Source: a virus. Taken from it: 64,000 nt of DNA. Shown piece by piece: positions 25,667-57,868 of the stretch. The stretch is from IMG/VR virus record IMGVR_UViG_3300029555_000004; one strand, written 5' to 3'. Within the stretch, counting starts at the first letter, position 1. The number at the start of each line of letters is the position of its first letter. The position numbers and the translations under genes were made by a program. The notes under the pieces were generated by a model that saw only the letters and a program-made list of their open reading frames with translations, was not told the DNA's origin and ran no database searches.

Positions 25667-25738
25667 TGGGCTATCGCCAAGTGGTAAGGCCGTGGAATTT
25701 GACTCCACAATTCGTTGGTTCAAATCCAACTAGCCCAG
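25667..25738 (+). tRNA. tRNA-Gln (anticodon UUG)
   Basis: Hand-folded cloverleaf: acceptor TGGGCTA/TAGCCCA, anticodon arm GTGGA-ATTTGAC-TCCAC, T-arm GTTGG-TTCAAAT-CCAAC; no encoded CCA. Confidence 0.9.
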
Positions 25739-25951: not shown

Positions 25952-26024
25952 GGAAGCTTAGTTCAGCGGTAAGAGCAACGGCCTCATAAGCCGTAAGTCC
26001 TGGGTTCGAATCCCAGAGCTTCCA
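25952..26024 (+). tRNA. tRNA-Met (anticodon CAU; elongator or Ile2-type, not initiator)
   Basis: Acceptor GGAAGCT/AGCTTCC, anticodon arm ACGGC-CTCATAA-GCCGT, T-arm CTGGG-TTCGAAT-CCCAG. Confidence 0.9.
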
Positions 26025-26948: not shown

Positions 26949-27020
26949 AGAAACATAGCTCAGTGGTAGAGCAATGATATCCAATATCATGTGACACAGG
27001 TTCGATTCCTGTTGTTTCTA
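26949..27020 (+). tRNA. tRNA-Trp (anticodon CCA)
   Basis: Acceptor AGAAACA/TGTTTCT, D-arm GCTC-AGTGGTA-GAGC, anticodon arm ATGAT-ATCCAAT-ATCAT, T-arm ACAGG-TTCGATT-CCTGT. Confidence 0.9.
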
Positions 27021-29817: not shown

Positions 29818-30072
29818 ATGAAAGTATATCTGGTTTACGGAGATGTCCATTTTGAACAATATGGTTCAGAATTTCATTTATTTGGAGTGTTTACTTCAAA
29901 GGAAATGGCAGAGAAAGTCAAAAATCAGAAAGAGGAAGAATTCTACCGAAAAGAAATGAAAGAAAAACCGTGTTATCGTAATATCGACAGCAGGGAAGAG
30001 GTTGAATTCGAAATAAAAGAAATGCAACTTGATAAAATTTGCGACTTATTTGTAGGAGGATATGTCGAATGA
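29818..30072 (+). CDS. hypothetical protein
   Basis: ORF track; GAGG RBS. Confidence 0.55.
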   Translation: MKVYLVYGDVHFEQYGSEFHLFGVFTSKEMAEKVKNQKEEEFYRKEMKEKPCYRNIDSREEVEFEIKEMQLDKICDLFVGGYVE

Positions 30073-30656
30073 AAAAGATACCAACATTGTTTGAGCGAGA
30101 ATTTAAAGACCATAATGTTATAAAAATCCTTCCAAAAGTGCATCCGGGTATGGAATGGGTACTTGAAGGAGAAGGGATTGCAACAGTGAAATATGATGGC
30201 GTTTGTTGTGCCGTAATTGACGGACAGTATTATAAACGATACGACTGCAAGAAAGGAAAAACACCGCCAGAAGGATTTATCCCTTGTTGTGAACCAGACA
30301 CAATTACAGGTCATTGGCCGGGATGGGTAAAGGTTGATGAGAAAAATCCGGCTGATAAGTGGTTTGTAGAAGCGTATTATGTAACTTCAATGTGGACAAA
30401 TCAAGGTTGTAAATTACCAGATGGCACATATGAAGCTGTCGGAAATCATTTTCAAGGCAATCCATATTATGACGATGATGATTCTTTAGTAAGACATGGC
30501 AACAATATCGTTGAAGTCGAGCGTACATTTTATGGAATCAAGAAATATCTTTCCGAACACGAGATAGAGGGATTAGTTTTCTGGAAGGACGGAAGCCCAC
30601 AATGCAAAATCAAACGTTCAGATTTTGGCTTTGAATGGCCCGTCAAGAAAGCGTGA
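30069..30656 (+). CDS. minimal ATP-dependent ligase-like nucleotidyltransferase (RNA/DNA ligase family)
   Basis: Motif I KYDG (ATVKYDGVCC), motif IV EGLVFW, motif V CKIKRSDF; only ~195 aa, no OB domain. Confidence 0.55.
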   Translation: MKKIPTLFEREFKDHNVIKILPKVHPGMEWVLEGEGIATVKYDGVCCAVIDGQYYKRYDCKKGKTPPEGFIPCCEPDTITGHWPGWVKVDEKNPADKWFVEAYYVTSMWTNQGCKLPDGTYEAVGNHFQGNPYYDDDDSLVRHGNNIVEVERTFYGIKKYLSEHEIEGLVFWKDGSPQCKIKRSDFGFEWPVKKA

Positions 30657-30923: not shown

Positions 30924-32675
30924 ATGGAAAAAATTACAGAAGGTTCGCTTGAATGGTATCGGACAGTCCTAAATCAGATTATCAATGGGGACATGACAAT
31001 CTATCAAAATCAAAAAGATTGCCTTGATTTGCTCTTAAATATGAATATTGACCTTCCTTTCGACAAGAACCAAGAAGCACGGAAAATGGCTATGAAAGTA
31101 AGTCAATACTCACATAACATAGCAGAGAAGTGTGCTGCATTAACTGGTAGTGGTGACTTTGACGATATCTACTGGCAGTATTTATTATTGGAATCACCAC
31201 ATTTGCTTGATTCATATGCCATGTATATAGAAAAAGATAGAAAACCAGAAGAACGGTTCTATTTACCAAGACGCAGAACATTGAAAAAAGTAGTAGATAA
31301 ATTACAAGCACTTGAAGAAGATGAACTTGACGAATTGTTTCTGCATCAGCCAGCCAGAACTGGTAAATCGCAAATTATTACTGTTGGAACCGCATGGCAT
31401 TGTGCAAGAAATTCAGAGATAAGCAACCTCTATGTTACATATAAAGAAGGACTTGGCGGCGCATTCCTAGATGGAGTTATGGAAATATGGACTGACCCCA
31501 CATATTGTCATGAAGATGTATTTCATTCAAAAATAGCCAGAACGGATGCAAAGAACCACAAAGTAGACCTTGAAAGAAAGAAAAAATATGCGACATTATC
31601 TGGAAAAGGTTTGGAATCTGGTTTGAACGGTGAGTATGACGCATATGGTTGGCTGATTCTCGATGATATCCTGGAAGGTATTCAAGATGTATTAAATCCA
31701 GATATTCTAAGAAGAAAGCAAATTGTGTTTGACAACAATGTAATGTCGAGAAAGAAAGAACAATGTAAATTGATTCTAAATGGTACTATCTGGTCATTGC
31801 ATGATTTGTATATGGACAGACTATCATTTCTTCAAAATAATCCAGAGGCAAAACACATTAGATATGATGTTCTTAAAATTCCAGCTCTTGACCCGGAAAC
31901 TGATGAGAGCAATTTTGACTACGATTACGGAGTTGGATTCAGTACAAAATATTATCGTACTATTCGTTCTAAATTTGAAGAAAACGATGATATGGCAGGA
32001 TGGTTAGCCCAATATCAGCAGGAACCTATTGAAAGAGATGGCGCTTTATTTAATGCGCAACATATGAATTTTTATAATGGACAACTGCCAGATGAAGAAC
32101 CATTGAAAGTAGTTTCGGCTTGCGACGTGGCTCTTGGTGGTAGTGATTACCTTGCAATGCCAGTAGCATATGTATATGAAGATGGTTCCGTATATATACA
32201 CGAAGTAGTATTTGATAACTCTGAAAAGAAATTTACTATGCCAAAAGTTGTATCAGCAATTGTCAATAATAAAGTTACGAATGCTTTTTTTGAAGCCAAT
32301 GCAGGCGGCGAAGGGTATAAAGATGAAGTAGAAGGAAAGTTGAAGGAGCAAGGGTATCAAACTAATCTTACTTCTAAATATGCTCAACAAATGATTTTGA
32401 ATAATGGTGGACACGCACCTAAATCAGCAGTTAGAAAAGAACAGAGAATTTGGGATAATGCTGAAAACATTAGAAAATTTTATTTTCTTGATACTGGATA
32501 TCAAAATGCAGAGTATAGAAAATTTATGAATAATGTCTATTCATTCACAATGACAGGAAAAAATAAGCACGATGACGCACCAGATTCACTCGCTAGCTTA
32601 GCAGTATTCTTAAAAAATGGAAGCGGAGTTGGAACCGCAACAGCAACACAGAATCCACTTTGGGGAAGGAGATAG
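30924..32675 (+). CDS. terL: terminase large subunit
   Basis: Walker A-like QPARTGKS, Walker B WLILDDILEG, C-terminal nuclease motif KHDDAPDSLA. Confidence 0.9.
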   Translation: MEKITEGSLEWYRTVLNQIINGDMTIYQNQKDCLDLLLNMNIDLPFDKNQEARKMAMKVSQYSHNIAEKCAALTGSGDFDDIYWQYLLLESPHLLDSYAMYIEKDRKPEERFYLPRRRTLKKVVDKLQALEEDELDELFLHQPARTGKSQIITVGTAWHCARNSEISNLYVTYKEGLGGAFLDGVMEIWTDPTYCHEDVFHSKIARTDAKNHKVDLERKKKYATLSGKGLESGLNGEYDAYGWLILDDILEGIQDVLNPDILRRKQIVFDNNVMSRKKEQCKLILNGTIWSLHDLYMDRLSFLQNNPEAKHIRYDVLKIPALDPETDESNFDYDYGVGFSTKYYRTIRSKFEENDDMAGWLAQYQQEPIERDGALFNAQHMNFYNGQLPDEEPLKVVSACDVALGGSDYLAMPVAYVYEDGSVYIHEVVFDNSEKKFTMPKVVSAIVNNKVTNAFFEANAGGEGYKDEVEGKLKEQGYQTNLTSKYAQQMILNNGGHAPKSAVRKEQRIWDNAENIRKFYFLDTGYQNAEYRKFMNNVYSFTMTGKNKHDDAPDSLASLAVFLKNGSGVGTATATQNPLWGRR

Positions 32676-32678
32676 AGT

Positions 32679-33101
32679 ATGATGACTACAGCTCAATATT
32701 TACGCCAGATTGAAAATTATGATAACAGAATCAAAAATAAGCTTATCGAAGAAGAACAGCTCAGTTCTCTTTCCACAAGTGTATCTGCAATTCCTGTTGG
32801 AGAAAAGGTACAAACTTCTGTAAAACGTGATCCAATGGGAGATATGGTTGCAAAGATATTTGATCTGCGAGAAGAGATTTCAAAAATGATATCCGAATTT
32901 TTACAAAAAAAACAGGAAATAGTCCGAACCATAGAACAGGTTGAAGACCCGTTGCTATACAACATACTATTTAAGCATTATGTTGAGTACAAATCTTTGG
33001 TTCGTATCGCAGATGAGATGGGATATTCCGAAATACATATGAAAAGAATGCACTTAAAAGCCATAGCAGAAGTAAAAAAGATAAAAGGTTTTGAAAGATG
33101 A
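32679..33101 (+). CDS. DUF1492/sigma-70 region-4-like late transcription regulator
   Basis: N-terminal YLRQIENYDNRIKNK, C-terminal HTH LLYNILFKHYVEYKSLVRIADEMGYSEIHMKRMHLKA. Confidence 0.6.
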   Translation: MMTTAQYLRQIENYDNRIKNKLIEEEQLSSLSTSVSAIPVGEKVQTSVKRDPMGDMVAKIFDLREEISKMISEFLQKKQEIVRTIEQVEDPLLYNILFKHYVEYKSLVRIADEMGYSEIHMKRMHLKAIAEVKKIKGFER

Positions 33102-33142
33102 TACTAAAGTATACTGAATGATACCACCAATATGTGTAAAAT
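33100..33142 (+). promoter_or_regulatory. conserved late box, copy A
   Basis: GATAC-N15-GATAC around AGTATACT, then TATGTG-TAAAAT; near-identical at 44890 and 59955. Confidence 0.6.
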
Positions 33143-33152
33143 ATAAAGTAGA

Positions 33153-33186
33153 GCATTGGATTAAAATATCCAGTGCTTTTTATTTT
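33153..33186 (+). terminator. leader terminator after box A
   Basis: GCATTGGA/TCCAGTGC stem, 8-nt loop, TTTTTATTTT. Confidence 0.7.
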
Positions 33187-33195: not shown

Positions 33196-34677
33196 ATGGT
33201 TCGGCTCGTGAGAAATACAATGAATTTTGTAGATTTATGCCGAGGTGAGTTCGGGCGAAAAGTAGCCTACACAGGCGTTGACCGAATCACTCCACAAAAT
33301 GTAGTAAAAGTAGTATCAGATACAATTGGCATACATAATAGAAACCGAACATTGATTGATTACTTGTATCGGTATATGAAAGGCGATCAGCCGATATTAT
33401 ACCGAAACAAAATAGTCCGACCAGAAGTTAATAACAGAGTGGTCGAAAATCACGCATTTGAAACTGTAAAATTTAAAGCTGGACAGATTTGTGGGGAGCC
33501 AATCCAATATGTATGTAAAAAGAAAAATGCAGACAAAAAAATAAATGAGCAAGTTGATTTGTTGAATGATTATCTGGATGAAGCCAATGCAGATGCAAGA
33601 AACATCCAGAGGGCAATATACCAAAGTGCAACAGGAACTTCCTATAAGGCTATTCTGAAAGAAGAGGACTGGACAAAAAACGGAGATTTACCACCGTTTA
33701 GAATCTTCATTCCGTATCCTGGTGATTGTTACATTGTATACTCACAGAGAAATGGGAAACCAATGCTTTCCGTGCAGATTTTAAAAGATGAAGATGAACA
33801 GCAATATTATTTGTGCTATTCAAAGAACCAGTTTTTTGAAATCAAGAATGGAAAAGTAACTAACTACGGCATCAATGGTTTTGGTGGTATTCCAATCGTT
33901 GAATGTCCGAATAATCACGACAGACTTTCGGATGTTGAAATTGCAATCACCTTATTTGATGCAATTAACAAATATCAGTCTGATAGATTAAATGGCGTGG
34001 AACAGTTTGTGCAAGCCTTTATGAAGTTTAAGAACTGCGAGGTAGACGAAAACGAGTTTTTGAAAATGGTAAAACTTGGTGCTATCTCTGTTAAAGATAC
34101 CGGAAATGGATGTCAGTCGGATGTTGAACTGATGACCGCTGAATTGAATCAATCAGAGAGCCAGGTTGCAAAGGATGATATCTACAATAATATGCTGATT
34201 GTAGAAGCAATGCCAAACCGACAAAGCAATAGTGGAGGAGATACAGGAAATGCCGTATACCTTCGTAATGGATGGGATTTTGCAGAGAGAGATGCAAAAT
34301 TGGTAGAAGCATTCACCAAGGAAGCTGAAAAGGAATCTGCCAGAATTATTCTAAATATTATCCGTGGCACGTCAAATGATGTTAATATCTCAACCCGAGA
34401 TTTCGATGTGAAGATAACCAGAAACCCAACAGACAATATGCTTGTAAAAGCACAGGCACTTGATTATCTGTTTAAAAATAAAATCCATCCGCTTATTGCA
34501 CTAATTACTTGCGGTTTATTTAGTGATCCACAGAAAGTTTATGAAATGAGTTTACCGTATCTGGGAACTATTTACCCGGAACTGGCAGACCCGGAAGCAG
34601 AAATGCAGAAAGCGCAACAATTACTGGATGAAAAATTTCAGAATCCAATCAATAAAGGCGTGATAGATAATGAATAA
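33196..34677 (+). CDS. portal protein (SPP1 gp6-like)
   Basis: Size, position after terL, SPP1-type portal N-terminal pattern; start ambiguous (ATG 33196, GTG 33208 or ATG 33220). Confidence 0.8.
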   Translation: MVRLVRNTMNFVDLCRGEFGRKVAYTGVDRITPQNVVKVVSDTIGIHNRNRTLIDYLYRYMKGDQPILYRNKIVRPEVNNRVVENHAFETVKFKAGQICGEPIQYVCKKKNADKKINEQVDLLNDYLDEANADARNIQRAIYQSATGTSYKAILKEEDWTKNGDLPPFRIFIPYPGDCYIVYSQRNGKPMLSVQILKDEDEQQYYLCYSKNQFFEIKNGKVTNYGINGFGGIPIVECPNNHDRLSDVEIAITLFDAINKYQSDRLNGVEQFVQAFMKFKNCEVDENEFLKMVKLGAISVKDTGNGCQSDVELMTAELNQSESQVAKDDIYNNMLIVEAMPNRQSNSGGDTGNAVYLRNGWDFAERDAKLVEAFTKEAEKESARIILNIIRGTSNDVNISTRDFDVKITRNPTDNMLVKAQALDYLFKNKIHPLIALITCGLFSDPQKVYEMSLPYLGTIYPELADPEAEMQKAQQLLDEKFQNPINKGVIDNE

Positions 34678-35305
34678 AGCCTTACAGTTTGATGAATTAA
34701 ATGTTTTATCAGAGAACCGCAGAAGTGAACCGTACGAAGAATATTTCGATAAAATGTCCATTTCTGACAAACAAAAAAGACTGAGGATAGCTTTTTCCGA
34801 ACAGATGGAAGAAGTTATCCTTTTTGTTTTATCACTGATAGAAACAATGGTTGAGAATGAAGAAGTTGACCAGGAATATATAGAAAATGAGTTATCCGAA
34901 CAATACCTTGCGATAACAGCTATATATTTTGCTGTTGATGACTATATCACAGATTATGTTAGACAATTCTCACATGATGTTGTTCAATCCACATTCGATC
35001 ACATCAAGGAAGAGTATTATCTTTCCAGAGACAGGGCAATGTTTATTTCTGAATGTGAAGCAAATACTTCATTGAATTATAAGGAATACACGGATGCAAT
35101 CAAATCTGGGAAGAAACATAAAACCTGGAAAGACATAGGAGATAAAAGAGAGCGCAGAACACATCTTGAAGTTGGCGGCACGACAATTCCAATCAAGGAG
35201 TTGTTTGCAGTCGGTGACAGCTTAATGCTTTTTCCAAAAGATGCTTCACATGGAGCTTCCAGCAAAGAAATTGTGAACTGTCGATGCTCAATTCAATACA
35301 GTTAA
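34670..35305 (+). CDS. head morphogenesis protein (Mu F / SPP1 gp7-like)
   Basis: C-terminal RTHLEVGG...NCRCSIQY motif; follows the portal gene. Confidence 0.75.
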   Translation: MNKALQFDELNVLSENRRSEPYEEYFDKMSISDKQKRLRIAFSEQMEEVILFVLSLIETMVENEEVDQEYIENELSEQYLAITAIYFAVDDYITDYVRQFSHDVVQSTFDHIKEEYYLSRDRAMFISECEANTSLNYKEYTDAIKSGKKHKTWKDIGDKRERRTHLEVGGTTIPIKELFAVGDSLMLFPKDASHGASSKEIVNCRCSIQYS

Positions 35306-35307
35306 TT

Positions 35308-35332
35308 AGGGACGAGAAATCGTCTCTTTTTT
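35308..35332 (+). terminator. intrinsic terminator
   Basis: AGGGACGA-GAAA-TCGTCTCT then T6. Confidence 0.85.
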
Positions 35333-35431
35333 ATTACACAAAAATAAAATGCATCCCGATAGCGTGAACATGGGAGACACCTTATGTTGAGCGAACAACG
35401 TTAAAAAGCGTACTGGTGAAAGGAGATTTCA

Positions 35432-36055
35432 ATGACAAGAGAAGATGTTAAAAAGATTTTTCCAGAAGCAACTGACGAGCAGATTACAGCATTTCTGAAT
35501 CAGTCTAATTCTGATGTGGCTAGAGAAAAAGCAAAAGCCCAGAAGATGAAAGAGGATGCAGAAAAAGCGGAAGCACTGGAAAAAGAACTGGAAGAACTCA
35601 AACAGCAGAACATGACGGAAGCTGAGAAAGCAGAACTGGAACGCCAGAAAGAAAAAGTTGCAAATGAGAAGAGGATTTCTGACCTCGAATCTGCACTTGC
35701 AACGTCCCAGAGAGAAGCCCTAGTAGGAAAAATCACTTCCATTTTTGCTAATGCAGGAATGAAAGGGGATGCTTACGCCGGAGCGATCAAAGCTTTTTCC
35801 AACATGAATGCGGATGATGCTCTTAAAGAAGCCCAGACCTTTGTTGATGGAATTTCCGCAGAAAATAAAGCGACACTTGATACCGCAAAGGCAGCTTGGG
35901 AGAAGGAAGCATTGGAAAACACTCCGAATCCGGGCGGTGGTAGTGGTAGCAAAGATACCGTAAAAAGCGATGCTGCTGAATTTGCAAAAGCTTACTCAGC
36001 AAAAATGAACCAGGAAACTAAATCAGCGGACGGTAACGCCCCTGTAAATATTTAA
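35432..36055 (+). CDS. scaffolding protein (DUF4355-like)
   Basis: Coiled-coil, Glu/Lys/Ala-rich; directly upstream of the capsid genes. Confidence 0.7.
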   Translation: MTREDVKKIFPEATDEQITAFLNQSNSDVAREKAKAQKMKEDAEKAEALEKELEELKQQNMTEAEKAELERQKEKVANEKRISDLESALATSQREALVGKITSIFANAGMKGDAYAGAIKAFSNMNADDALKEAQTFVDGISAENKATLDTAKAAWEKEALENTPNPGGGSGSKDTVKSDAAEFAKAYSAKMNQETKSADGNAPVNI

Positions 36056-36073
36056 GTAAAGGAGATATAAATA

Positions 36074-36418
36074 ATGGCTTTTATGAAAACAGAGCAGTAT
36101 GAGTCCACTCCAAATATTCTCGAATCCGAGGTCGGACTTGTGCTTAAAACCTACACAGCAGATCAGACAAATGCTGAAACAGTTGGAACTAAGAAAATTA
36201 TTAAAGCAGGTTCCGTATATCCAACAAATGCGACAGGTGCAATCGGTATTGTATTTGAAGATGTTGATATGACAGATGATACCAAGAGACCAATTTCCGT
36301 GATTGTCGCAGGACGTGTTCTCGAAAAGAGACTTCCGGTAACAGTTGACACTACTGCAAAAACAGAGCTTGAAAAAGCCGGAATTGTTTTTGTAGTCACA
36401 GAAGACCCAGTATTTTAA
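36074..36418 (+). CDS. putative head decoration/accessory capsid protein
   Basis: Position between scaffold and major capsid; no clear motif. Confidence 0.35.
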   Translation: MAFMKTEQYESTPNILESEVGLVLKTYTADQTNAETVGTKKIIKAGSVYPTNATGAIGIVFEDVDMTDDTKRPISVIVAGRVLEKRLPVTVDTTAKTELEKAGIVFVVTEDPVF

Positions 36419-36431
36419 GGAGGTATGACAA

Positions 36432-37469
36432 ATGCCATTTAATGTATTAGAAACAATCACAGAGGAAGAGAGACTTAATTTCTCCCAGAGTTTTGATGTA
36501 AAAAGACCTGGCATCCTTGGTACCATTTTCCCGGATACAAAAACACAATATTTGAAAGCCGAATACTACAGACTTATGGCTGGACAGCGACTGCCAGAGG
36601 TAGCTTTTGTTCACGCACTTGATACCGAAGCAGAAATCGGTTCCAGACCTGGTTTCGAAAAGGTATTGACCGAGAAACTTTTCATTAAGAGAAAAATCAA
36701 TCAGTCTGAGAGATTACAGCAGGCTATTGAAAATGGTGTTCCAGATGACAATAATCTCAAAAAATTTGTATTTGACGATGCAGCCAATCTTTTTGAGGGC
36801 GTAGTCGCAAGGGCGAATGTAATGAAAGGCCAGTTCCTTTCCACTGGTATTGTAAAAATCAAGGAAAATCATGTGGATATGAGCATTGATTACGGCGTTA
36901 CATCTGATGCAAAAGTAACACTCACTGATTGGTCTAAGCCAGACGCAGATATCATGGGCGATATCCAGAAGATGGTAGCCATTGCAGAAGATAACGGATA
37001 TGTGGTAAACAAAGCTCTTACTTCTCTCAAAATGATTAATTACATGAGAAACAATACTGCAATGCAGACCGCTGTTCTTGGAGCTGCAAACAAACGTCTT
37101 CTGACAAAACAGGAGCTTACAAATCTGCTTATGCAGGAGTACGGATTCACAATTGATCGTTGTGATGAAAAATATCGTTACAGAAAAGCAGACGGAACTC
37201 TGAAAACAGGAAGATACTTCAAAGAAGATGTGTTTACTTTGTATGAAGCAAATGCGAATGGCTCCTTTGGCTCCGGACTTTGGGGTGTAACTCCAGAGGA
37301 AACGGAATACAGACAGTTCATCCAGGAAGAGAACCGTTCTTTCGTAACTCTGTCCATGTGGGCTACACCAGATCCAGTTGCAGTATGGACAAAAGCATCC
37401 GGTATGTTCGTTCCTGTTGCACCAAAAGCCAACGGCGGTATCGTAATCGGTACCAAGGCGGGGGAATAA
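36432..37469 (+). CDS. major capsid protein (capsid protein E-like)
   Basis: 345 aa, position, N-terminal MPFNVLE...LNFSQSF pattern. Confidence 0.8.
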   Translation: MPFNVLETITEEERLNFSQSFDVKRPGILGTIFPDTKTQYLKAEYYRLMAGQRLPEVAFVHALDTEAEIGSRPGFEKVLTEKLFIKRKINQSERLQQAIENGVPDDNNLKKFVFDDAANLFEGVVARANVMKGQFLSTGIVKIKENHVDMSIDYGVTSDAKVTLTDWSKPDADIMGDIQKMVAIAEDNGYVVNKALTSLKMINYMRNNTAMQTAVLGAANKRLLTKQELTNLLMQEYGFTIDRCDEKYRYRKADGTLKTGRYFKEDVFTLYEANANGSFGSGLWGVTPEETEYRQFIQEENRSFVTLSMWATPDPVAVWTKASGMFVPVAPKANGGIVIGTKAGE

Positions 37470-38449: not shown

Positions 38450-38686
38450 ATGGATGATTATAAAGACTTTTCAGAAGATGAAAGAATCTTCTATTTGCGT
38501 GAAGCTGGATTTGATTCCAGAGAAAAGGAGTTATTCCGATTGCGTGTCTATGAAGAAAAAACGCTTGCAGAAGCTTCAGAAATCATGGGCTACAGCACGA
38601 GAACCGTAGACCGCATAAACAGAAAATTAAAAAAGAAAATTATGAAAGTTGCCCCGATGTATTGTCGGGGCTTTTCTTTGTATTAA
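38450..38686 (+). CDS. mini sigma-70 region-4-like HTH protein (78 aa)
   Basis: REKELFRLRVYEEKTLAEASEIMGYSTRTVDRINRKLKKK. Confidence 0.6.
   Translation: MDDYKDFSEDERIFYLREAGFDSREKELFRLRVYEEKTLAEASEIMGYSTRTVDRINRKLKKKIMKVAPMYCRGFSLY
38651..38679 (+). terminator. intrinsic terminator inside the last codons of the sigma-like gene
   Basis: GCCCCGA-7 nt-TCGGGGC then TTTTCTTT. Confidence 0.85.
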
Positions 38687-41562: not shown

Positions 41563-41581
41563 AGCAATAAATGAATTAAGT

Positions 41582-41615
41582 CCTTGTCGCGAATTAATGC
41601 GGCAGGGGCTTTTTT
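41582..41615 (+). terminator. intrinsic terminator
   Basis: CCTTGTCGC/GCGGCAGGG stem then CTTTTTT; followed by AGAAAGGATGGT, the same 12-mer found after the box A terminator. Confidence 0.7.
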
Positions 41616-43984: not shown

Positions 43985-44377
43985 ATGAGAGGATTAGTTC
44001 GTCAAAAACAAAAAGTATATTGGTCACGAATATCCGAAAAGACAGAAGGATTAGACCGAATTAAGGTTTATGAGAAACCAGCTTTGTACTCTTTTTCCGT
44101 ATCATCTACAGCCGGAACACCGGAAGAAATCGCAGCCGGAATAGTGCCAGATTATGACAGATACATTACAAGCTTTAATCGAAATTTCCATCCACAGGAA
44201 GCAGATATATTTTGGATAGACAGAATCCCACAAATAAGCGAGGATGGAAGCCTTATTTTGGACGAAGATGGCGAGCCTACAGTATTGCCAGATTATGTAC
44301 TAAAGAAGATTTTAGACACACAAAAAGGCAATATTGCCAGATACGGAATTTCCAAGAGAGGAAATGAGGATGGGTAA
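43985..44377 (+). CDS. putative head-closure/head-tail adaptor protein
   Basis: Size and position before the gp10-like gene. Confidence 0.4.
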   Translation: MRGLVRQKQKVYWSRISEKTEGLDRIKVYEKPALYSFSVSSTAGTPEEIAAGIVPDYDRYITSFNRNFHPQEADIFWIDRIPQISEDGSLILDEDGEPTVLPDYVLKKILDTQKGNIARYGISKRGNEDG

Positions 44378-44885
44378 GACAATAAAGTGTACCTTATCAC
44401 AGAAGTCAATCCGGAATGCTATTGATGAAATAAAAAATTATCAAAAATCTTTAAGGAGCAAAAATGAAATCTTCATAAAAAGATTATGTGAATTAGGGAT
44501 TCCAGTTATTGACCAAAATATTTTGGCAGCACAAGGCGATTCTGATAAAAACTACAATACTTACATCAAAATTAACAGTTTTGGTAATTATGCAGAAGCC
44601 CATTTAATATGCGAAGGCAAAAGCATTTTATTCATTGAATTCGGCGCTGGTATTTACCAAAATGGTGCAGCCGGTTCTAGCCCACATCCAAAAGGAGAAG
44701 AATTTGGTTATACAATCGGTTCTTACGGACAAGGAAAAGGAAAATACGATTCCTGGGTATATGTCTCCGATTCTGGCGAATGGGTTCGCTCTTACGGTAC
44801 AGAAGCCACAATGCCAATGTATAAGGCAAGCGTAGAAATCATTCAGAATATCCGCAAAATCGCCAAAGAGGTGTTCTCTTCCTAA
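44370..44885 (+). CDS. HK97 gp10-like neck/tail-completion protein
   Basis: FIEFGAG motif and position. Confidence 0.5.
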   Translation: MGKTIKCTLSQKSIRNAIDEIKNYQKSLRSKNEIFIKRLCELGIPVIDQNILAAQGDSDKNYNTYIKINSFGNYAEAHLICEGKSILFIEFGAGIYQNGAAGSSPHPKGEEFGYTIGSYGQGKGKYDSWVYVSDSGEWVRSYGTEATMPMYKASVEIIQNIRKIAKEVFSS

Positions 44886-44889: not shown

Positions 44890-44933
44890 GATACCATAAT
44901 ATACTGAATGATACCAACTAATTATGTTATCAT
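44890..44933 (+). promoter_or_regulatory. conserved late box, copy B
   Basis: GATACCATAATATACTGAATGATACC ... TATGT-TATCAT; weaker hairpin AATGCG/CGCATT + T6 at 44962-44994. Confidence 0.55.
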
Positions 44934-45011
44934 TACAGTGTTAAATTGTAGCATAAAATGCAATGCGTTCACTATGAAGGTGGGCGCATTTTTTATTGTG
45001 AGGTGACAGAT

Positions 45012-45413
45012 ATGCCGGACACAATAGAATCCCCTGTACTGGAAGTTTTTTCAAGGTGGGGAGCGGCTGTTTCTAAGATTACCGGTGCAGACAATTATTC
45101 CATGGATGGGAGCGAGACAAATGCTTCCGGAAAAAAGGCATATGCACAGCTTTATATGCTCGGAAATCCAACTACGAAAGGTGACCTTGAAGGGGATGAA
45201 TGCGCAACAATGCCATCATTTCAAGTAAATTGTTTCACATCTGGTAGCAAAGCATTAACCAGAGTGTATGAATTGGACAAGATAAGTCACAAAGCTATGG
45301 TGAGCATGGGATTCCGTCGTACATATGGACCGGAGCTTATGTTTTTTGGTGACAGTGGAATCAAAAAGCTTGTGAGCCGATACAGCCGGATATATACAGG
45401 AAAATTACTTTGA
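45012..45413 (+). CDS. putative tail terminator/tail-completion protein
   Basis: ATG 45012 after GAGGTGA; position before the major tail gene. Confidence 0.4.
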   Translation: MPDTIESPVLEVFSRWGAAVSKITGADNYSMDGSETNASGKKAYAQLYMLGNPTTKGDLEGDECATMPSFQVNCFTSGSKALTRVYELDKISHKAMVSMGFRRTYGPELMFFGDSGIKKLVSRYSRIYTGKLL

Positions 45414-45471: not shown

Positions 45472-45765
45472 ATGGATCAGATTTTAAGTTATGTAAAGCC
45501 AGAATTACTTATTGTCGTTGTATTTCTTTATTTTATCGGAGAAATGATTAAAAAGTCAGAGAATATTTCTGACAAATTTATTCCAATGATTTTAGGAATT
45601 CTTGGTGTATTAATTTGCGGTCTTTATGTTTTTGCAACATCTACAGTTTCCGGTTCACAGGAAGTTGCAATGGCACTGTTTACCGCAATTACACAAGGCG
45701 TTATCGTTGCCGGATTAAGTAATTATGTAAATCAAATTATTAAGCAAGCAGGAAAAGAAGAGTAG
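45472..45765 (+). CDS. holin-like protein (phage_holin_4/phi LC3-type pattern)
   Basis: YVKPELLIVVVFLYFIGEMIKK...DKFIPMILGILGV...ITQGVIVAGLSNYVNQIIKQ; three hydrophobic segments. Confidence 0.65.
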   Translation: MDQILSYVKPELLIVVVFLYFIGEMIKKSENISDKFIPMILGILGVLICGLYVFATSTVSGSQEVAMALFTAITQGVIVAGLSNYVNQIIKQAGKEE

Positions 45766-45840: not shown

Positions 45841-46371
45841 ATGGCAGATTTAACAACACTTGGCGTAACTTTTCATTACGGTGTTGAAACCGTTAAAGGA
45901 ACGAAGCCAACTGCATTCACCTGGTTAAAAAGATGTAGTTCTATTGGTGGAATTTCTCTTGATACAGAACAGATTGACGTATCCGCACTCGAAGACTTCA
46001 TTACACAGTACGCATCTGGTAGACAGGATACTGGTGGTACTTGGGATGTAACCTTCAATCTTAACGCTGATGTTATCACAGCATTAAAGAAGCTTATGAC
46101 TGATACGGCAACAGGAAAGACAAAAGGATTTAGAGTTTGGTTTGAAGTTGTATTTCCAGACCTCGAAGATGCATTCTTTGTTATCGCAGACCCTGGAAAA
46201 AATATTCCACTGTCTGACATTGGGCAGAATGAAGCAGCAACAATTCCGCTGTCTCTCATTATTCAGGAATACAAAGGTCTTGATACAAAAGTTGTTTCCG
46301 AAGAGCTTGCACAGGCTTTAGACACCGCAAAAGCAGTAGCAGATTCCACAGGCGCAATGGCACTCAGCTAA
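45841..46371 (+). CDS. major tail protein
   Basis: 176 aa, position before chaperones and tape measure, pattern resembling phi13/TP901-1-type MTP. Confidence 0.7.
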   Translation: MADLTTLGVTFHYGVETVKGTKPTAFTWLKRCSSIGGISLDTEQIDVSALEDFITQYASGRQDTGGTWDVTFNLNADVITALKKLMTDTATGKTKGFRVWFEVVFPDLEDAFFVIADPGKNIPLSDIGQNEAATIPLSLIIQEYKGLDTKVVSEELAQALDTAKAVADSTGAMALS

Positions 46372-46824: not shown

Positions 46825-47219
46825 CTTTTCGAGAAGCTGTTTACCAAGAGATTCTTCCTTTATACCTCTCTATTGGTGTATCTAAAGAAGAATTTATGGA
46901 TTCTACTCCAACAGAGTTAAAGCCTTATCTTGAAGCTGAAAAGATACGCCAAAAGAGGAAAGATGCCGAACTCTGGCAAGCGGGCATTTATGAAACATCA
47001 GCCACATTCACAGCTGTTGCAAATGCTTTAATCGGAAAAAAATCCAAGGCAGAGTATTTGAAGAAACCTTTACTTGAATCAGCAGAGGAAGAAAAGCGTA
47101 AACAGGAAGGTATACTTTCCGAAGAAGAAAAGAAAAAACAGAGAAACGCACTTTTGGCAAGCTTGCAACTCATGCAGGCAAGCTTTGAGCTTAACCATGA
47201 AAAGGGCAGGCAGGATTAA
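46810..47219 (+). CDS. tail assembly chaperone -1 frameshift extension (gpT-like)
   Basis: The -1 frame is open from 46692 to 47219; AAAAAG at 46810-46815 precedes the gpG stop. Confidence 0.55.
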
Positions 47220-47245
47220 CACTCTTGTCTGCCCTTTATTTTTTT
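47204..47245 (+). terminator. hairpin + T-run between chaperone and tape measure
   Basis: GGGCAGGCAGGA/TCTTGTCTGCCC stem (12 bp incl. GU), 7-nt loop holding the gpT stop, TTTATTTTTTT. Confidence 0.65.
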
Positions 47246-47268
47246 GTAAAAAAGGAGGGATAAATAAA

Positions 47269-50200
47269 ATGGCTGACAATACCATTGATACCCTTGATAT
47301 ACAGATTAGCAGTAGTACAGAAAAAGCAGTACGTGCGCTGACTAATCTTTCAAATAAACTTACAGAAGTTAATTCCGCATTAAGCGGAGTTAATACAAAT
47401 GGACTGCGTAGTTGTGTAAGGGAACTTGGAAAACTAAAAGAACTTGATATAGGGAAAATGACAAGCATTGCTGATGGAATTGGAAAATTCTCAAATTCCA
47501 TAAAGACAATGGGCGGAGTAGATTATAAAGGCTCTGGTCTGAATGCAGTTATCAACTCAATCAACAGGCTTAGCCAGATTGATGTTAGTGGATTTGATTC
47601 TGGAAAACTTGGAGAAATAATCCATAAATTAAGCAATTTGGCAGAGATTCCAGATGTATCTTCCGGTGTTAATCGTTTTGTTAATTCAATGGCTAGATTA
47701 GCCAATTCCGGTGAATATATTGCGAATGTATCAGCTGAATTGCCTGGGCTTGGAAGAAATCTTAAATCAATTGTAGAGAGTTTTACGAGCGTTGGCGATA
47801 TATCTGAACCTGTGAATAGGTTAGTTCAGTCTATTGCACAATTGGCAAGCTCTGGAAATAAAATCGGACAAACATCAAGCCAACTTGGAACACTAGCAAA
47901 GGAAGTATTATCTTTCTTCGATGTGATGAAAACTGCGCCTAAAATCAGCGAAAACACTGTAAGAATGACAGAAGCTTTGGCACATTTAGCTACTGCAAGT
48001 GGGAAAATAAATAAAGTCACAAATTCTCTTACGAATTCATTTTCGAGATTATCAAATGCCACAAATGGACTTGGAAATGCAGGAAGAAAATTATCTTCCA
48101 TGATTGGCTCTGCAAGCTCTGCACTAGCTAATTTTGGAAATACCGCAAATGTAACCACAAGGAAGACTGGTTCATTAACTTCACAGCTTGCAGGATTATA
48201 TGCAAAATTTTTTACTGTGACAAGAGGAATTAAAGCACTTTGGAATTCTGTAAAGTCTGCATCTAATTATGTTGAAACATTGAACTATTTCAATTCTGCG
48301 TTCGATCAAGTTACTGATGGATTAGATATCAGCAAGTGGCAGAATGCAGGAGTAAAATCCGCAGAGGAATATGTTGGTTCTTTTGAAAAACGTGCAAAAG
48401 AACTTACAAAAAAAATGACTGGATTTGAAGTATCAGATGCAGGAGATCTGACACGTATATCTGGTGGCAGTCTAGGTCTTAATCCAAACGACACCATGAA
48501 TTATCAAGCTACTTATGCGCAGATGGCATCATCAATGGGGGCAACAGCAGATGCATCAACTAAGGTTTCACAAGCTTTAACAGAAATCGGATCAGACCTT
48601 GCTTCTGTAAAAAATCTTGAATTCAACGATGTTTGGAATGATATGGCTTCTGGCATAACCGGAATGAGCAGGGCACTTGATAAATATGGTATTAATATCC
48701 GTGTAGCAAATTTACAACAGGAACTTTATAATCTTGGAATTGACGCTACTGTATCAAGTCTAAGCCAGTCAGATAAAGCTATATTAAGAACAATTACAAT
48801 ATTGAATAGTTCTAAATATGCATGGGCTGATTTGGCTTCAACAATTAATCAACCAGCCAACCAGGTTCGTATGTTGAAATCTAATTTCGAAGCACTTGGT
48901 AGAAGTATCGGAACATTGTTCCTCCCTATTGTTGCAAAAGTACTTCCATATATTAACGGTCTTTTTATGGCATTGGAAAGAGCTTTTTCTTGGCTCGCAA
49001 AACTACTTGGCATTAAGCTATCGGATTATGTATCTTCAACTGGAAAAGCTTCAGTCGATATGGGAGATATTGCAGACAGCACAGATAATGCTGCATCCGG
49101 GCTCGACAATGCAAACGACAATGCGAAGAAATTACAAAAAACTCTTTCTGTTCTTTCCTTCGATGAATTGAACCAGTTGAATGATAACAAGACATCAAGT
49201 TCAAGTGGAAGCTCGGGCAGCGGGGCTCCGGGAAGTGCCCATATACCAGAACTGGACGCTGCTTTCGATAAAGCACTTTCTGATTATCAAAAAGCATGGG
49301 ATCAAGCATTTGCAAATGTTGAGAATAAAGCGCAAACTGTATCTGATAAGATTATCAAGGCATTTAAACAAATCAGAAAGAATGCAAAGCCAACCACTGC
49401 CGCAATAAAGAAGCTTTATAATGAAGGTCTAAGCAGACTAGGAAATTTTTCGATTAATGCTTTGAAAAATTTGTGGAAGAATTACCTCCAGCCAATCGGT
49501 AAATGGTCATTATCAAACAACTCAGGATTTCCAAGATTCTTTAACATTACAAATGATTTGCTGACAAAAATCAACTGGTTAAAGCTCCAAACTTCTTTAG
49601 AAGGATTGTTTACTATGCTCCAAAAGCCAACACAATTTGTTTGGACGGGACTTATGGATTTTTACGAGCATTTTCTCGTTCCAGTCGGAACTTGGACGAT
49701 GAACGGCGCAATTCCACAATTAGTTGATGCGTTGACCAGTTTCGGAAACAACATTCATTGGGAAGAACTTAATAAATCACTGAAAAATTTCTGGGATGCA
49801 TTGGCTCCATTTGCAAAGAATGTAGGACAAGGCATTGTGGATTTTTATAAAGATTTACTTAATGTCGGAGAGAATTTCATCAATTCAACTGTTCCTGGAG
49901 GTCTAAATTCTATCGCAGAAGCAATAAAAAATATAAGTCCCGAAACAGCACAAGCTATAGGAAAGAGTCTCGGCCAAATTTCTTTGGCGATTCTAGGATT
50001 CAAAGGATTAACCTTTATTGGTGGAATCATTGGAAAAGACAGCCCATTAGGAAAAGGACTTTCTTTACTGGCAAAACATCCTTATGCGTCAATGGCACTT
50101 GGCATCGGTGGAATCGTACTTGCGCTTGATAATTTCGGAGTTATTGATGTTGACTGGGAGTGGATTTGGAGCAGTATTGACCGTGTAAAAACCTCAATAC

Positions 50201-52209
50201 AGAATTTTATTGATAAGGTTGATTGGAATGCTGTTGGAACTGCTATTGGAAATTTATGGTCTGCATTCCAACCATTTGCAGAGGGATTTGCAGATGCGTT
50301 GATTACCGGGCTTGAAGGAATAATTAATATCGGAGCGGATTTAATTAACGGTATTGCAAATGCAATTAATTGGCTGGCTGAAAAATTAAGTGGAATTGAT
50401 CCAGAATTTATAAAACAAGTTGGTGCTGCATTCGGAACATTGTTTGCGATCAAAATAGCCAAAGATATTGCCACCGAAATCTTTTCCTTTGCTAGCGGAA
50501 TCGGTTCATTAGCTTCAAAACTTTTAAATTTCCCACTTGATACCGCATCTTCTCTTCCCACTATCATCGGTGATATTGGTGGAGCAGCGGAAACGGCTGG
50601 AAATGGCGGGTTTACTACACTTGCAGAAAAGATAAAAAATCTCGGTGATGTCGCACAAACAGCTGGTGGACAATTCCAAGGATTTTGGGGATACGCAACT
50701 AATTTAGGCGCAACTGCATTTGTCATGGAAGGACTTGGACAGGTAAAAAAAGCTATGGACTTTAAAGACTCCACAGCTGACGCATTCAACGATTTTGAAG
50801 TTGTTAGAAAAGCATTAAAAATCCTTGAAGACCAAACTGGAATTTCCGGAGATAAATTTATCGGTCTTGGCGGTGATTTAAAAAATGTGAAAGACAATGC
50901 ATTTGATTTTGATGGACAGCTTCAAACCGTAGAAACATCACTTGAAAATCTTGGAATTTCTTCCGATACATTTAAGCAAGCATTAAAACAGGCAATGGAA
51001 GAATCCGATACTTCTACAAATTCTCATGTAAGTAATATTAATGAATATATCGGTACGATGGGGACAGAATTTGATAATGCGAAATCTGCATTAGAAAGAC
51101 TTTCAAATCAAGCGGTAATCACTCCAACGCAGTTTGATGAATTAAGTGCTGTCCTTCAGCAACAAGAATCATCTGGTGCAACAGCCAGAGCCGCATTCCA
51201 AGCCTTGATGGATAAAATGGCAGAGATGGGAATTGACACAGGAAAAGTTATTAAAGCTTTTTCAGAAGATGTTCCAAAAGCTTCATCAACAATGAGCAAA
51301 TCAGTGGAAACAGCTACGAAATCCATTTCTTCAAAATCTAAGACTGGTTTTGGAATAGCCAGTGCAGCTGTAAGCACAGCAATGGCTGGAATGAAAAAAA
51401 GCACAGAAAGCACAATGCCTTCCATTTGGTCAAAGATAAAGAACACGAATGATGATGTTGAAACCAACTCTAAAACCAATTGGGGAAATTCTGCAAGTGC
51501 TGTATCGACAGCCCTCGGAACCATGGACACTGATACAAGAAATGTAATGGGTAAGGTTATGACAACCATTCAAAGTTATTGGTCTTCCGTTTTGATCAAT
51601 ACAAACCAGATTTGGGAAAAGGCTTCTGGCAAGGTTGATACAGAAACCGAAAACATGAAGACTTATACAGAATCTAACTTATCTGGTATTTCAGATTATA
51701 TCACAAGTCTGTTCAAAAATGATTTAACATCAATGGGTAGGGAAACTGCACAATCTTTCGCCAATGGTATGAAACAAGTTCATCTACCAACATTAACATA
51801 TCGAATCTCTGAATGGAGAAAGCATAACCTCGGAAACGGAAAAACCAGTTCTACACCAGTTTATAAGCCTAATTGGTACGCCAAAGGTGGTCTTTTTAAT
51901 GGCGCACAGGTAATTGGTATCGGTGAAGCTGGTTCTGAAGCCGTTCTTCCTTTGGAAAATCCACGAACCATGAAGAAGATCGCGGACAGCATTGTTTCCA
52001 GCTCAGACGGAAGCATGGGACTTACAAAAGAAGAAATGGCAAAAGCAGTAGCCCAGGGAGTTGCAATGGCAATGAGTATGAACAGCGGAAACAAGAATCC
52101 GCAGTACATTATGAACAGTATTATTCTGGACGGAAGCGAGATTGCAAAAGCAGTAACAAAAGCCCAAAATGATACAGATAGCCGTTTCAAACCGTCCCCG
52201 GCATATTGA
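47269..52209 (+). CDS. tape measure protein (1646 aa)
   Basis: Length, position, Ala/Ser/Gly/Asn-rich helical repeats; AAGGAGGG RBS before ATG 47269. Confidence 0.9.
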   Translation: MADNTIDTLDIQISSSTEKAVRALTNLSNKLTEVNSALSGVNTNGLRSCVRELGKLKELDIGKMTSIADGIGKFSNSIKTMGGVDYKGSGLNAVINSINRLSQIDVSGFDSGKLGEIIHKLSNLAEIPDVSSGVNRFVNSMARLANSGEYIANVSAELPGLGRNLKSIVESFTSVGDISEPVNRLVQSIAQLASSGNKIGQTSSQLGTLAKEVLSFFDVMKTAPKISENTVRMTEALAHLATASGKINKVTNSLTNSFSRLSNATNGLGNAGRKLSSMIGSASSALANFGNTANVTTRKTGSLTSQLAGLYAKFFTVTRGIKALWNSVKSASNYVETLNYFNSAFDQVTDGLDISKWQNAGVKSAEEYVGSFEKRAKELTKKMTGFEVSDAGDLTRISGGSLGLNPNDTMNYQATYAQMASSMGATADASTKVSQALTEIGSDLASVKNLEFNDVWNDMASGITGMSRALDKYGINIRVANLQQELYNLGIDATVSSLSQSDKAILRTITILNSSKYAWADLASTINQPANQVRMLKSNFEALGRSIGTLFLPIVAKVLPYINGLFMALERAFSWLAKLLGIKLSDYVSSTGKASVDMGDIADSTDNAASGLDNANDNAKKLQKTLSVLSFDELNQLNDNKTSSSSGSSGSGAPGSAHIPELDAAFDKALSDYQKAWDQAFANVENKAQTVSDKIIKAFKQIRKNAKPTTAAIKKLYNEGLSRLGNFSINALKNLWKNYLQPIGKWSLSNNSGFPRFFNITNDLLTKINWLKLQTSLEGLFTMLQKPTQFVWTGLMDFYEHFLVPVGTWTMNGAIPQLVDALTSFGNNIHWEELNKSLKNFWDALAPFAKNVGQGIVDFYKDLLNVGENFINSTVPGGLNSIAEAIKNISPETAQAIGKSLGQISLAILGFKGLTFIGGIIGKDSPLGKGLSLLAKHPYASMALGIGGIVLALDNFGVIDVDWEWIWSSIDRVKTSIQNFIDKVDWNAVGTAIGNLWSAFQPFAEGFADALITGLEGIINIGADLINGIANAINWLAEKLSGIDPEFIKQVGAAFGTLFAIKIAKDIATEIFSFASGIGSLASKLLNFPLDTASSLPTIIGDIGGAAETAGNGGFTTLAEKIKNLGDVAQTAGGQFQGFWGYATNLGATAFVMEGLGQVKKAMDFKDSTADAFNDFEVVRKALKILEDQTGISGDKFIGLGGDLKNVKDNAFDFDGQLQTVETSLENLGISSDTFKQALKQAMEESDTSTNSHVSNINEYIGTMGTEFDNAKSALERLSNQAVITPTQFDELSAVLQQQESSGATARAAFQALMDKMAEMGIDTGKVIKAFSEDVPKASSTMSKSVETATKSISSKSKTGFGIASAAVSTAMAGMKKSTESTMPSIWSKIKNTNDDVETNSKTNWGNSASAVSTALGTMDTDTRNVMGKVMTTIQSYWSSVLINTNQIWEKASGKVDTETENMKTYTESNLSGISDYITSLFKNDLTSMGRETAQSFANGMKQVHLPTLTYRISEWRKHNLGNGKTSSTPVYKPNWYAKGGLFNGAQVIGIGEAGSEAVLPLENPRTMKKIADSIVSSSDGSMGLTKEEMAKAVAQGVAMAMSMNSGNKNPQYIMNSIILDGSEIAKAVTKAQNDTDSRFKPSPAY

Positions 52210-52225: not shown

Positions 52226-52339
52226 TGGTATAATTTTTTTAATGAAGAAGTACACACGGTCTTGATTTTTGAGCCGCTAAGAAGAAATTAACATTTCTCA
52301 ATTTTGAGGAATTTTTATCTTACTTGGCGGCTCTTTTTT
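52226..52339 (+). promoter_or_regulatory. extended -10 promoter followed by branched terminator
   Basis: TGGTATAAT at 52226-52234; stem GAGCCGCTAAG/CTTACTTGGCGGCTC (52271-52333) then T6. Confidence 0.5.
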
Positions 52340-52372
52340 ATTTTATCCATCAATATAAGGAGGAATGGAAGA

Positions 52373-53062: not shown

Positions 53063-53152
53063 ATTTTGATCTTTTAGACAGCTCGCATTTAAAATGAGGT
53101 CTGGAAATGTTCGATTTAAAATAGAACCTTACAATGGGGAGGGAAAGCAAAA

Positions 53153-53368
53153 ATGTCATATAAAAATTATTGCGTTGTAAGCAAAGAAGTGCTTCATAAT
53201 AGAAATATTTCCCTTGAAGCAAAGGGAATATACGCTTTAATGATGAGTGTTGGCAAAGATAATTTTAATGTAAAGGAATTATATGATCTTTCAAAAGAAG
53301 AAATAAATGTTATTGATAATGCGATAAATGAGTTAGAAAAACTCGGTTACGTAACTCTTGAAAAATAA
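53153..53368 (+). CDS. small winged-helix/HTH protein
   Basis: ISLEAKGIYALMMS...AINELEKLGYVTLEK pattern. Confidence 0.4.
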   Translation: MSYKNYCVVSKEVLHNRNISLEAKGIYALMMSVGKDNFNVKELYDLSKEEINVIDNAINELEKLGYVTLEK

Positions 53369-55739: not shown

Positions 55740-55762
55740 CGAAAAGGAGATGTAAAAATATA

Positions 55763-57820: not shown

Positions 57821-57829
57821 TAAAAATAA

Positions 57830-57862: not shown

Positions 57863-57868
57863 GAAAAA

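Follow-up and report, generated by a model that had tools for sequence, protein, structure and literature searches.

The DNA under study is a 64,000-nucleotide stretch of the IMG/VR virus record IMGVR_UViG_3300029555_000004 (hereafter the window), belonging to an uncultured phage with a genome of about 80 kb, known from human gut samples. When cultured close relatives were sought in a phage collection, only two unannotated fecal fragments matched. A short repeated element, here termed the box, occurs three times in the window (Table 1). Box A overlaps the end of ltr, a gene for a 140-residue protein of the DUF1492 (LtrB) family, and precedes the portal gene; box B stands before a block of tail genes and box C before the distal-tail genes. 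All three boxes, as judged from sequence, head virion modules, and both terL and ltr lie outside the set of genes that they precede. The finding, read at the level of sequence comparison, is a three-promoter LtrB regulon with a terminator in each leader, the activator family itself being already known.

Table 1. Features of the window at and around the three boxes, in order of position.
Feature	Position	Strand	Remarks
terL	30924-32675		phrog_38, 2.8e-46; directly 5' of ltr
ltr, ltrB-like gene (DUF1492, 140 residues); putative box-binding late activator	32679-33101	+	TGA overlaps first repeat of box A
Box A	33100-33124	+	GATAC / TATAC / GATAC; ATAC cores 33101-04, 33111-14, 33121-24
-10 region, promoter A	33131-33142	+	TATGTG + TAAAAT (TATGTGTAAAAT); 12 nt 3' of third repeat
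Leader terminator A	33153-33186	+	stem 33153-33161/33168-33176, T-run 33177-33186; -15.9 kcal/mol, z -6.4
SPP1-type portal, first gene 3' of promoter A	33196-34677	+	PF05133, 1.1e-71
Head block	33196-37469		SPP1-type portal, Mu F-like protein, decoration and major capsid proteins
78-residue protein	38450-38686	+	sigma-70 region 4 only; PF04545
Open reading frame ending before box B	44334-44885		TAA stop
Box B	44890-44914	+	GATAC / TATAC / GATAC
Extended -10, promoter B	44923-44933	+	TATGT + TATCAT (TATGTTATCAT); 13 nt from box
Leader terminator B	44962-44997	+	12-pair stem, then ATTTTTTATT; -18.4 kcal/mol, z -3.5
133-residue gene, first after promoter B	45012-45413	+	no assigned function
Holin-like gene	45472-45765		in block headed by 45012-45413
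Tail-tube-like gene	45841-46371		in block headed by 45012-45413
1711-residue open reading frame, putative tape measure	47074-52209		promoter-B block
Accessory block, 7.7 kb	52304-59956		two Ant-like genes, int-alpA RNA, weak replication-initiator-like gene, zinc-ribbon protein, HNH endonuclease, 33-residue open reading frame
33-residue open reading frame, last of the variable accessory block	59855-59956	+	TGA overlaps box C
Box C	59955-59979	+	GATAC / TATAC / GATAC
Extended -10, promoter C	59988-59998	+	TATGT + TATAAT (TATGTTATAAT); 13 nt from box
Leader terminator C	60023-60055	+	13-pair stem, UUCG loop 60036-60039, T-run 60050-60055; -16.8 kcal/mol, z -4.1
DUF6711 protein, first gene 3' of promoter C	60085-60450		PF20458
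Distal-tail genes	60085-64000	+	phrog_1194, phrog_6616 (9.7e-194); include a tail protein of >1182 residues, frame open past window end

Near-identical boxes had been noted at these three positions in a sequence-only reading of the window, and all three were confirmed there on the plus strand. The pattern GATACN5TATACTGAATGATAC matched the three boxes without mismatch and nothing else in the window; allowing three mismatches added no site, and 100 dinucleotide-preserving shuffles gave no match. A looser pattern, ATAC-N6-ATAC-N6-ATAC, returned the same three sites and no more, and the box is the largest direct-repeat family of the window. Its architecture is that of three (G/T)ATAC direct repeats with a 10-bp period, extending from about -50 to -26, with the ATAC cores centred near -47, -37 and -27 when counted back from the -10 hexamers. 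On this spacing the box is located on one face of the helix, in place of a -35 element. It had earlier been described as two GATAC half-sites around a palindrome. That model was dropped, since the middle unit is itself GATAC in a lineage of relatives at 72% protein identity (lineage 2, below), making the palindrome incidental and the box a set of three direct repeats; copy B also lacks a perfect AGTATACT. The stop codon of the upstream open reading frame does lie at or next to the box, as had been said: boxes A and C share the TGA of ltr and of the 33-residue frame, respectively, and box B begins 4 nt past a TAA.

More than 117 stretches of IMG/VR phage contigs carry the box. A scan of 596 Gb of genome sequence from bacteria and archaea gave only two matches, both at chance level (Nitrosopumilus and a Bdellovibrionaceae metagenome-assembled genome), which argues that the box is not a host motif; a host regulatory motif or a prophage origin was ruled out on this ground.

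Each box is followed by a -10 region. Promoters B and C fit the TRTGn extended -10 exactly. The TATGT and -10-like hexamers read earlier were thus present where expected, in canonical form in B and C; at promoter A the TG lies 1 nt out of place, and 12 nt instead of 13 separate box and hexamer. TRTGn extended -10 elements are typical of Gram-positive (Firmicutes) sigma-A promoters, with TG at -15/-14 followed by TAnnnT, and extended -10 promoters can function without a -35. None of promoters A-C has a -35 match, CTGAAT/TGAATG occupying its position in every copy, as had been observed before. Lacking a -35, the box promoters are probably not constitutive. The leaders are AT-rich and contain further -10-like hexamers (such as TGTAAAAT, seen in lineages 3 and 4, below); these have no consistent position and are expected by chance in sequence of this composition.

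Each leader holds an intrinsic terminator, as far as sequence and predicted folding can tell, consisting of a G+C-rich stem-loop and a U-run, with the structure conserved rather than the sequence. Hairpin A begins about 3-5 nt 3' of the inferred start site, and terminator B has a weaker hairpin just before its main stem. The terminators end about +35 to +55 from the inferred start and are followed by the ribosome-binding site (RBS), so that the earlier description of a stem-loop and T-run ahead of an RBS holds for all three copies. The opposite strand folds 5-8 kcal/mol worse, as the stems contain G-U pairs, which identifies the hairpins as RNA structures of rightward transcripts. Compensatory double changes affect four of the nine pairs of the A-class stem across four lineages, and the B- and C-class stems have compensatory variants such as GCGTTCAC/GTGGGCGC versus GCATTCAC/GTGAGTGC and TGTC/GACA versus TACC/GGTG. 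Stem variants in relatives are numerous (-9 to -19 kcal/mol), and terminator C is kept in relatives. Outside the promoter, the three leaders have no common sequence. Conservation of the box beside differing hairpins had been taken to indicate a protein-binding site; the apparent co-variation of the box with a DNA-binding helix (below) agrees with this. Rfam searches found nothing relevant in the leaders, either at gathering level over the whole window or at E-value level for box A and ten related loci.

The order box, -10, hairpin with T-run and RBS was the same in all copies and lineages. From T-run to RBS the gap is 3-35 nt, which leaves no room for a promoter, and transcripts of the virion genes must therefore cross the leader terminator. 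A promoter 3' of the terminators, of the kind used by the staphylococcal regulator RinA, was rejected for this family since the RBS lies only 3-10 nt past the T-run in several copies. In four related loci (L009, L030, L038 and L043), two or three tandem leader terminators stand between the sole box and the DUF6711/tail genes. These position-C leaders are chimeric (L009 1431-1700; reverse strand in L030, L038 and L043), with an A-type terminator, a C-rich hairpin, a C-type terminator and a third hairpin with T-run; a Rha-like cargo gene comes next, then DUF6711 and the tail genes, with no second box between. At least seven terminator-like hairpins without a box were also seen on the plus strand of the late region of the window (at 35308, 38651, 40456, 41578, 45421, 47201 and 57828). 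Of the strong ones with T-runs that lie between late genes, 41578-41611 has 14 pairs and 47201-47237 has 15 and lies just 5' of the probable tape-measure start; the hairpin at 38651-38671 sits within the 3' end of the gene for the 78-residue protein.

Relatives with the syntenic order terL, ltr, box, portal were found by protein searches, and the identities given below compare their DUF1492 protein with that of the window. The box was present at the ltr stop in all 80 close relatives, which were fetched by protein homology and not by the pattern. Variation among them was confined to the spacers, the ATAC cores and (one position aside) the -10 hexamer being invariant. Presence of the box at syntenic positions had been put forward earlier as a check; besides these 80 relatives, the layout is kept in four lineages. 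After the ltr stop, the repeats are GATAC three times in the 72% lineage (lineage 2), TAGTATG / AATCATAT / AATCATAT in the 52% lineage (lineage 3) and TCATA three times in the 43% lineage (lineage 4). All lineages keep the 10-bp phasing (9 and 10 bp in the 43% lineage), a gap of 11-13 nt to a TGn-type -10, the hairpin with T-run and the RBS. The DUF1492 recognition helix reads YSEIHMKRMH, YSEVTIKRLH, YSIQHIRSCH and YSWRQVMRIH in the four lineages, and the box differs where the helix differs. The box and the 32679-33101 product probably form a cognate pair, with specificity conferred by the recognition helix. Three boxes per genome were also counted in contig 069421 (lineage 1) and contig 123515 (lineage 2), and at least two in lineage-3 genomes. 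The sequence 5' of box C differs among relatives.

The 32679-33101 product was assigned to DUF1492 by PF07374 (27.7 bits, cut-off 21.5) and phrog_36 (7.5e-19). It had been named before as a candidate factor and this stands, its gene ending in box A and its recognition helix co-varying with the repeats; membership in a described regulator family, Ltr, had been missed. An AlphaFold (AF2) model built from an alignment of 100 family members (predicted local distance difference test score 90) comprises a long helical hairpin (residues 4-35 and 52-86) and a three-helix, sigma-region-4-like helix-turn-helix (HTH). Foldseek matched the model to sigma region 4 domains (SigF, SigD, sigma-E, SigR), with a root-mean-square deviation of 1.2 over 50 columns for SigF region 4 and no match at E <0.05. 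No solved structure of the family was found, and a PDB profile search yielded weak sigma region 4 matches and spurious coiled-coil ones. The 140-residue model contains no sigma-2 domain, indicating that the protein is not a sigma factor.

The other candidate proposed earlier, the 78-residue sigma-region-4 protein, was rejected as the box binder. It is 90% identical in a lineage with the same box and 79% identical in one with a different box, with the HTH unchanged, and cannot explain a change of specificity where its HTH is constant. This protein is 79-90% identical where Ltr is only 52-72% identical, and a role as a partner that acts on RNA polymerase is conceivable.

DUF1492 corresponds to LtrB, family III of the Ltr superfamily (Quiles-Puchalt et al. 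2013, PMC3753634). Late-gene expression depends on Ltr proteins, an LtrB included, and each is specific for its own control region; the recognition site consists of 2-4 short direct repeats directly past the regulator's stop codon, and specificity resides in the C-terminal HTH (PMC3753634, PMC13123087). The present system is alike in its PF07374 protein, in repeats that begin at the stop codon, in control of virion genes, in a terminator 3' of ltr and, here by comparison only, in its inferred repeat specificity. It differs in having three operator-promoters per genome where a single late promoter is reported, and in the position of ltr between terL and portal rather than at the early/late boundary before terS and the packaging module. 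The repeats are also strictly 10-bp phased and abut an extended -10, and the terminator is 3' of the promoter, in the leader. That Ltr would bind such repeats and be needed for late transcription is carried over from the published family work. We regard it as highly probable that the three boxes are Ltr-dependent late promoters. Of the earlier proposal of a late promoter dependent on an activator or an alternative sigma factor, the activator part is retained, with DUF1492/LtrB in that role; the alternative sigma part is not, as a sigma-2 domain is missing and the -10 is of the sigma-A type.

The layout was compared with more distant members of the family, using 12 annotated DUF1492 phage records (Streptococcus 7201, Javan191 and Javan630; Erysipelothrix phi1605; Ruminococcus, Terrisporobacter and other Clostridia). 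Most of these show a stop codon, repeats, an extended -10, a hairpin (usually with a T-run) and an RBS, which makes the promoter-then-terminator layout a property of the LtrB family and not of this phage alone. TGnTAnnnT lies at +13 to +73 and the hairpin T-run starts at +74 to +142, both counted after the stop; the RBS follows and then, in most, an HNH endonuclease gene. The scan flagged a terminator in 9 of the 12 and one was seen by eye in phage 7201; Javan191 has a strong hairpin with a weak T-run, and the Monoglobales phage has no evident terminator. In an alignment of eight distant leaders, 8 of 15 stem pairs co-vary; no Rfam match was found for the distant leaders. Among cultured LtrB phages, S. 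thermophilus phage 7201 and a Moineauvirus have this order of elements. Gene order in the distant phages is the classical one of helicase, ltr, HNH/terS.

A leader about 40-140 nt past the stop is common to DUF1492 phages of unrelated hosts (L208, L209, L216, L217, L219-L221 and L223). It contains TATAAT-CAGCAAnAnAGAAT, a covarying hairpin ending in GGGCTTTTCTTATGCCC and the RBS of the HNH endonuclease gene, with some variation in the parts. Staphylococcus phage 55 (L212 1394-1603 and L213 1-265) carries four AAATGAC repeats with a 9-bp period past the ltrC stop, and a hairpin with T-run about 300 nt beyond them; the order of elements is uninformative there without reliable start sites. Its annotated terS start (position 266) is apparently too far downstream, as the TerS-typical in-frame N-terminus KLTPKQEKF lies near position 150.

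RinA of phages phi11 and 80alpha offers a second point of comparison. There, transcription starts 23-24 bp before terS and >155 bp past the repeats, with a terminator between (Ferrer et al. 2011, PMC3152322), and the mechanism was considered by the authors to be 'more complex' than direct recruitment (PMC3152322). Shared with the present system are a late activator of the Ltr superfamily, repeats distal to the gene and a factor-independent terminator between regulator and first late gene. Here, however, the -10 is 12-13 bp from the repeats, the terminator comes after the -10, and several copies leave no room for a downstream promoter. Geometry is not uniform across the Ltr superfamily, given that the RinA start site was mapped beyond the terminator.

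We hypothesized that the box is the operator of the phage's own DUF1492/LtrB late regulator. Ltr bound to the three phased repeats would substitute for the -35 contact and recruit host sigma-A RNA polymerase to the extended -10, and transcription would start a few nucleotides before a strong leader terminator. This terminator would stop polymerases arriving from the terL-ltr operon and from accessory blocks, and the modules for head, tail and distal tail would remain off until Ltr has built up. Polymerases initiated with Ltr would become terminator-resistant, at least over the leader, a promoter-coupled antitermination following the logic of lambda Q with an unrelated sigma-4-like protein. Ltr might travel with the polymerase or remodel it at the flap or RNA exit channel; another possibility is simple resistance of early elongation complexes that keep sigma-like contacts and have no NusA. 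Both the polymerase contact and the terminator bypass are steps that we infer. Coupling of the bypass to the promoter, proposed by analogy, is rated at slightly under an even chance. The same rating applies to the statement as a whole, which joins Ltr-operated late promoters, a terminator gate and promoter-coupled bypass.

Bypass is favoured because the costly promoter-then-terminator order is conserved, though the reverse order would insulate without loss, and because the terminators look strong and tandem terminators precede essential tail genes. Several observations weigh against it or against the statement as a whole. Three promoters in 27 kb disfavour fully processive antitermination, for which lambda uses one promoter. 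DUF1492 shows no similarity in sequence or fold to the Q-lambda, Q21 or Q82 families in Pfam, the PDB profile search or Foldseek, and the match of the protein to the 'Q-like' phrog_79 is weak (1e-4) and covers a generic HTH only. The RinA start site, >155 bp past the repeats with the terminator between, does not fit the proposed arrangement. Boxes without an evident terminator occur in three other elements (L034, L117 and L131, below), so a terminator is not required for box function. Extended -10 promoters can fire without an activator, which would allow a negative role for the box. Finally, a very strong activated promoter with a 70-90% efficient terminator would also give workable late expression.

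This last point leads to the most serious competitor, in which the boxes are ordinary Ltr-activated late promoters with no antitermination. The hairpins would be partly efficient, ending upstream operons, damping leakage and giving the mRNA a protective 5' stem-loop, while expression would depend on a strong promoter and on polymerases that escape. All operator and promoter evidence fits this explanation equally well, no Q-like protein was found, and the existence of three separate promoters suggests impeded transcription through the late region. The hairpins start a few nucleotides past the inferred 5' end, the position expected of the 5' stem-loops that stabilise transcripts in Firmicutes. 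We consider it quite possible, although on balance somewhat improbable. The terminators look strong rather than leaky (9-13 pairs, 5-6 consecutive U, -16 to -18 kcal/mol), the costly order is kept at three positions, in four lineages and in distant members, and natural variants stack two or three terminators 5' of essential tail genes.

Much less credence is given to the box as the operator of a phage or host repressor that closes three constitutive extended -10 promoters until late infection. The box does overlap the -35/spacer region, so that a bound protein could occlude polymerase, and a -35 is dispensable for extended -10 promoters. However, the adjacent co-varying gene belongs to a family experimentally shown to activate late transcription (PMC3753634), and absence of the box from bacterial genomes makes a host regulator unlikely.

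Even less probable is a small-RNA gene, whose 35-55-nt transcript would itself be functional and exist in three sequence variants. The promoter-terminator distance is indeed short and conserved, and lambda makes an analogous short 6S RNA from PR'. Yet the leaders share no sequence past the promoter and match no Rfam family, and an RBS and virion gene always come directly next, with no alternative promoter.

That the DUF1492 protein is an alternative sigma factor, with the box as its -35-type element, is scarcely credible. Its C-terminal domain is sigma-region-4-like and a homologue is called a 'specialized sigma subunit' by one source, but the model combines a helical hairpin with a sigma-4-like HTH and has no sigma-2 with which to recognise or melt a -10, the -10 itself matches the textbook sigma-A form TRTGnTATAAT, and three phased repeats over 25 bp are unlike a -35 element. 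Equally hard to credit is a recombination or homing target or mobile repeat at module boundaries without a transcriptional role: despite hypervariable sequence just 5' of box C, the adjoining HNH endonuclease gene and chimeric A/C leaders in relatives, the exact 12-13 nt register to the -10 hexamer survives replacement of the box sequence, changes in the box go with changes in a DNA-binding helix, inverted termini and target duplications are lacking, and the mosaicism is explicable as a by-product of recombination at a shared regulatory sequence.

The proposed Ltr-operated promoters with promoter-coupled bypass resemble lambda Q/PR'/tR' (and the corresponding systems of phages 21 and 82) in combining a regulator gene, a site at the late promoter, a promoter-proximal intrinsic terminator and late genes, with further terminators within the late region. 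The differences are considerable. The protein is related to no Q family, either in sequence or in fold, and the promoters have no -35 and are probably activator-dependent, whereas the lambda late promoter, with a -35 and a -10, is strong and constitutive and yields a short terminated RNA in the absence of the regulator. The terminator ends about +35 to +55 here and about +190 in lambda, a sigma-dependent pause element is not established here, and there are three promoters as against one. The lambda-type checkpoint suggested earlier is plausible on architecture, without homology: the system may function as Q does while being no Q system. A further parallel is the Alt activator of the lactococcal phage TP901-1, whose direct repeats (-76 to -32) reach the -35 of a sigma-A late promoter 5' of the packaging genes, according to the accounts given in PMC3152322 and PMC13123087. 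As portrayed there, it is likewise a phage activator acting on a series of direct repeats at a late promoter; it differs in having four imperfect repeats and a single promoter, and these two accounts do not describe a leader terminator.

Boxes were also seen in other elements. In L034 (7765-8068) and L117, a GATAC/TATAC/GATAC box and extended -10 without a terminator lie 5' of a gene for a 58-residue HTH protein. Other products of the L034-type element are ParA, a tyrosine recombinase and a RepA-like protein, and the 10 kb fetched contained no DUF1492 gene. This may be a satellite or plasmid-like element that has come under the phage's late activator. The 24-kb contig L131 (11815-11950) has a lineage-2-type box (GATAC three times) with an extended -10, no obvious terminator and a second TGATATAAT about 60 nt downstream.

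Some further features of the gene map were noted. The portal start codon may be 33196, 33209 or 33222 when the N-terminus is compared with L205. In the promoter-B block, the chaperone and tape-measure labels were given from gene order or position and size, without a family match. terL lies 5' of ltr and of the first late promoter and apparently shares a transcript with the regulator, not with the virion genes; an RNA ligase-like gene (30039-30656) is just 5' of terL, and no small terminase was recognised around terL-ltr (30924-33101). Three plus-strand tRNA genes (25667-25738, 25952-26024 and 26949-27020) lie 5' of the packaging genes. Lying between the tape-measure gene and box C, the accessory block resembles an island or moron cluster inserted into the tail module. 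It holds an int-alpA RNA (Rfam, 47.7 bits, above the gathering score) at 53380-53450 on the plus strand, directly 5' of a 407-residue gene with weak similarity to replication initiators.

Promoter-terminator coupling across the family is not discussed in the cited Ltr papers, and it gives a testable hypothesis on how Ltr acts. Across a very large group of phages of Gram-positive hosts, Ltr regulators switch on packaging and lysis and in this way control transduction and the spread of pathogenicity islands. The phage family described here affords an unusually clean view of the arrangement: the operator is phased and lies 12-13 bp from an extended -10, each genome has three copies, specificity has been swapped naturally between lineages, and every leader has a terminator. 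We would go further only with considerable reserve, and think it rather unlikely, that DUF1492/LtrB proteins (perhaps Ltr proteins widely) are promoter-loaded, sigma-4-like antiterminators and not simple activators, a Gram-positive analogue of Q built from another fold, with the threefold gate insulating head, tail and distal-tail modules from accessory islands and L034-type elements perhaps sensing the late phase through the box. Should the terminators prove to be no more than leaky, what results is still a well-documented Ltr regulon with several promoters, in an abundant group of uncultured gut phages. Should bypass depend on Ltr, an activator family known for a long time would need reinterpretation as initiation-coupled antiterminators, and the promoter-terminator cassette would offer a tight, compact and orthogonal switch of late genes for use in the engineering of phages and Firmicutes.

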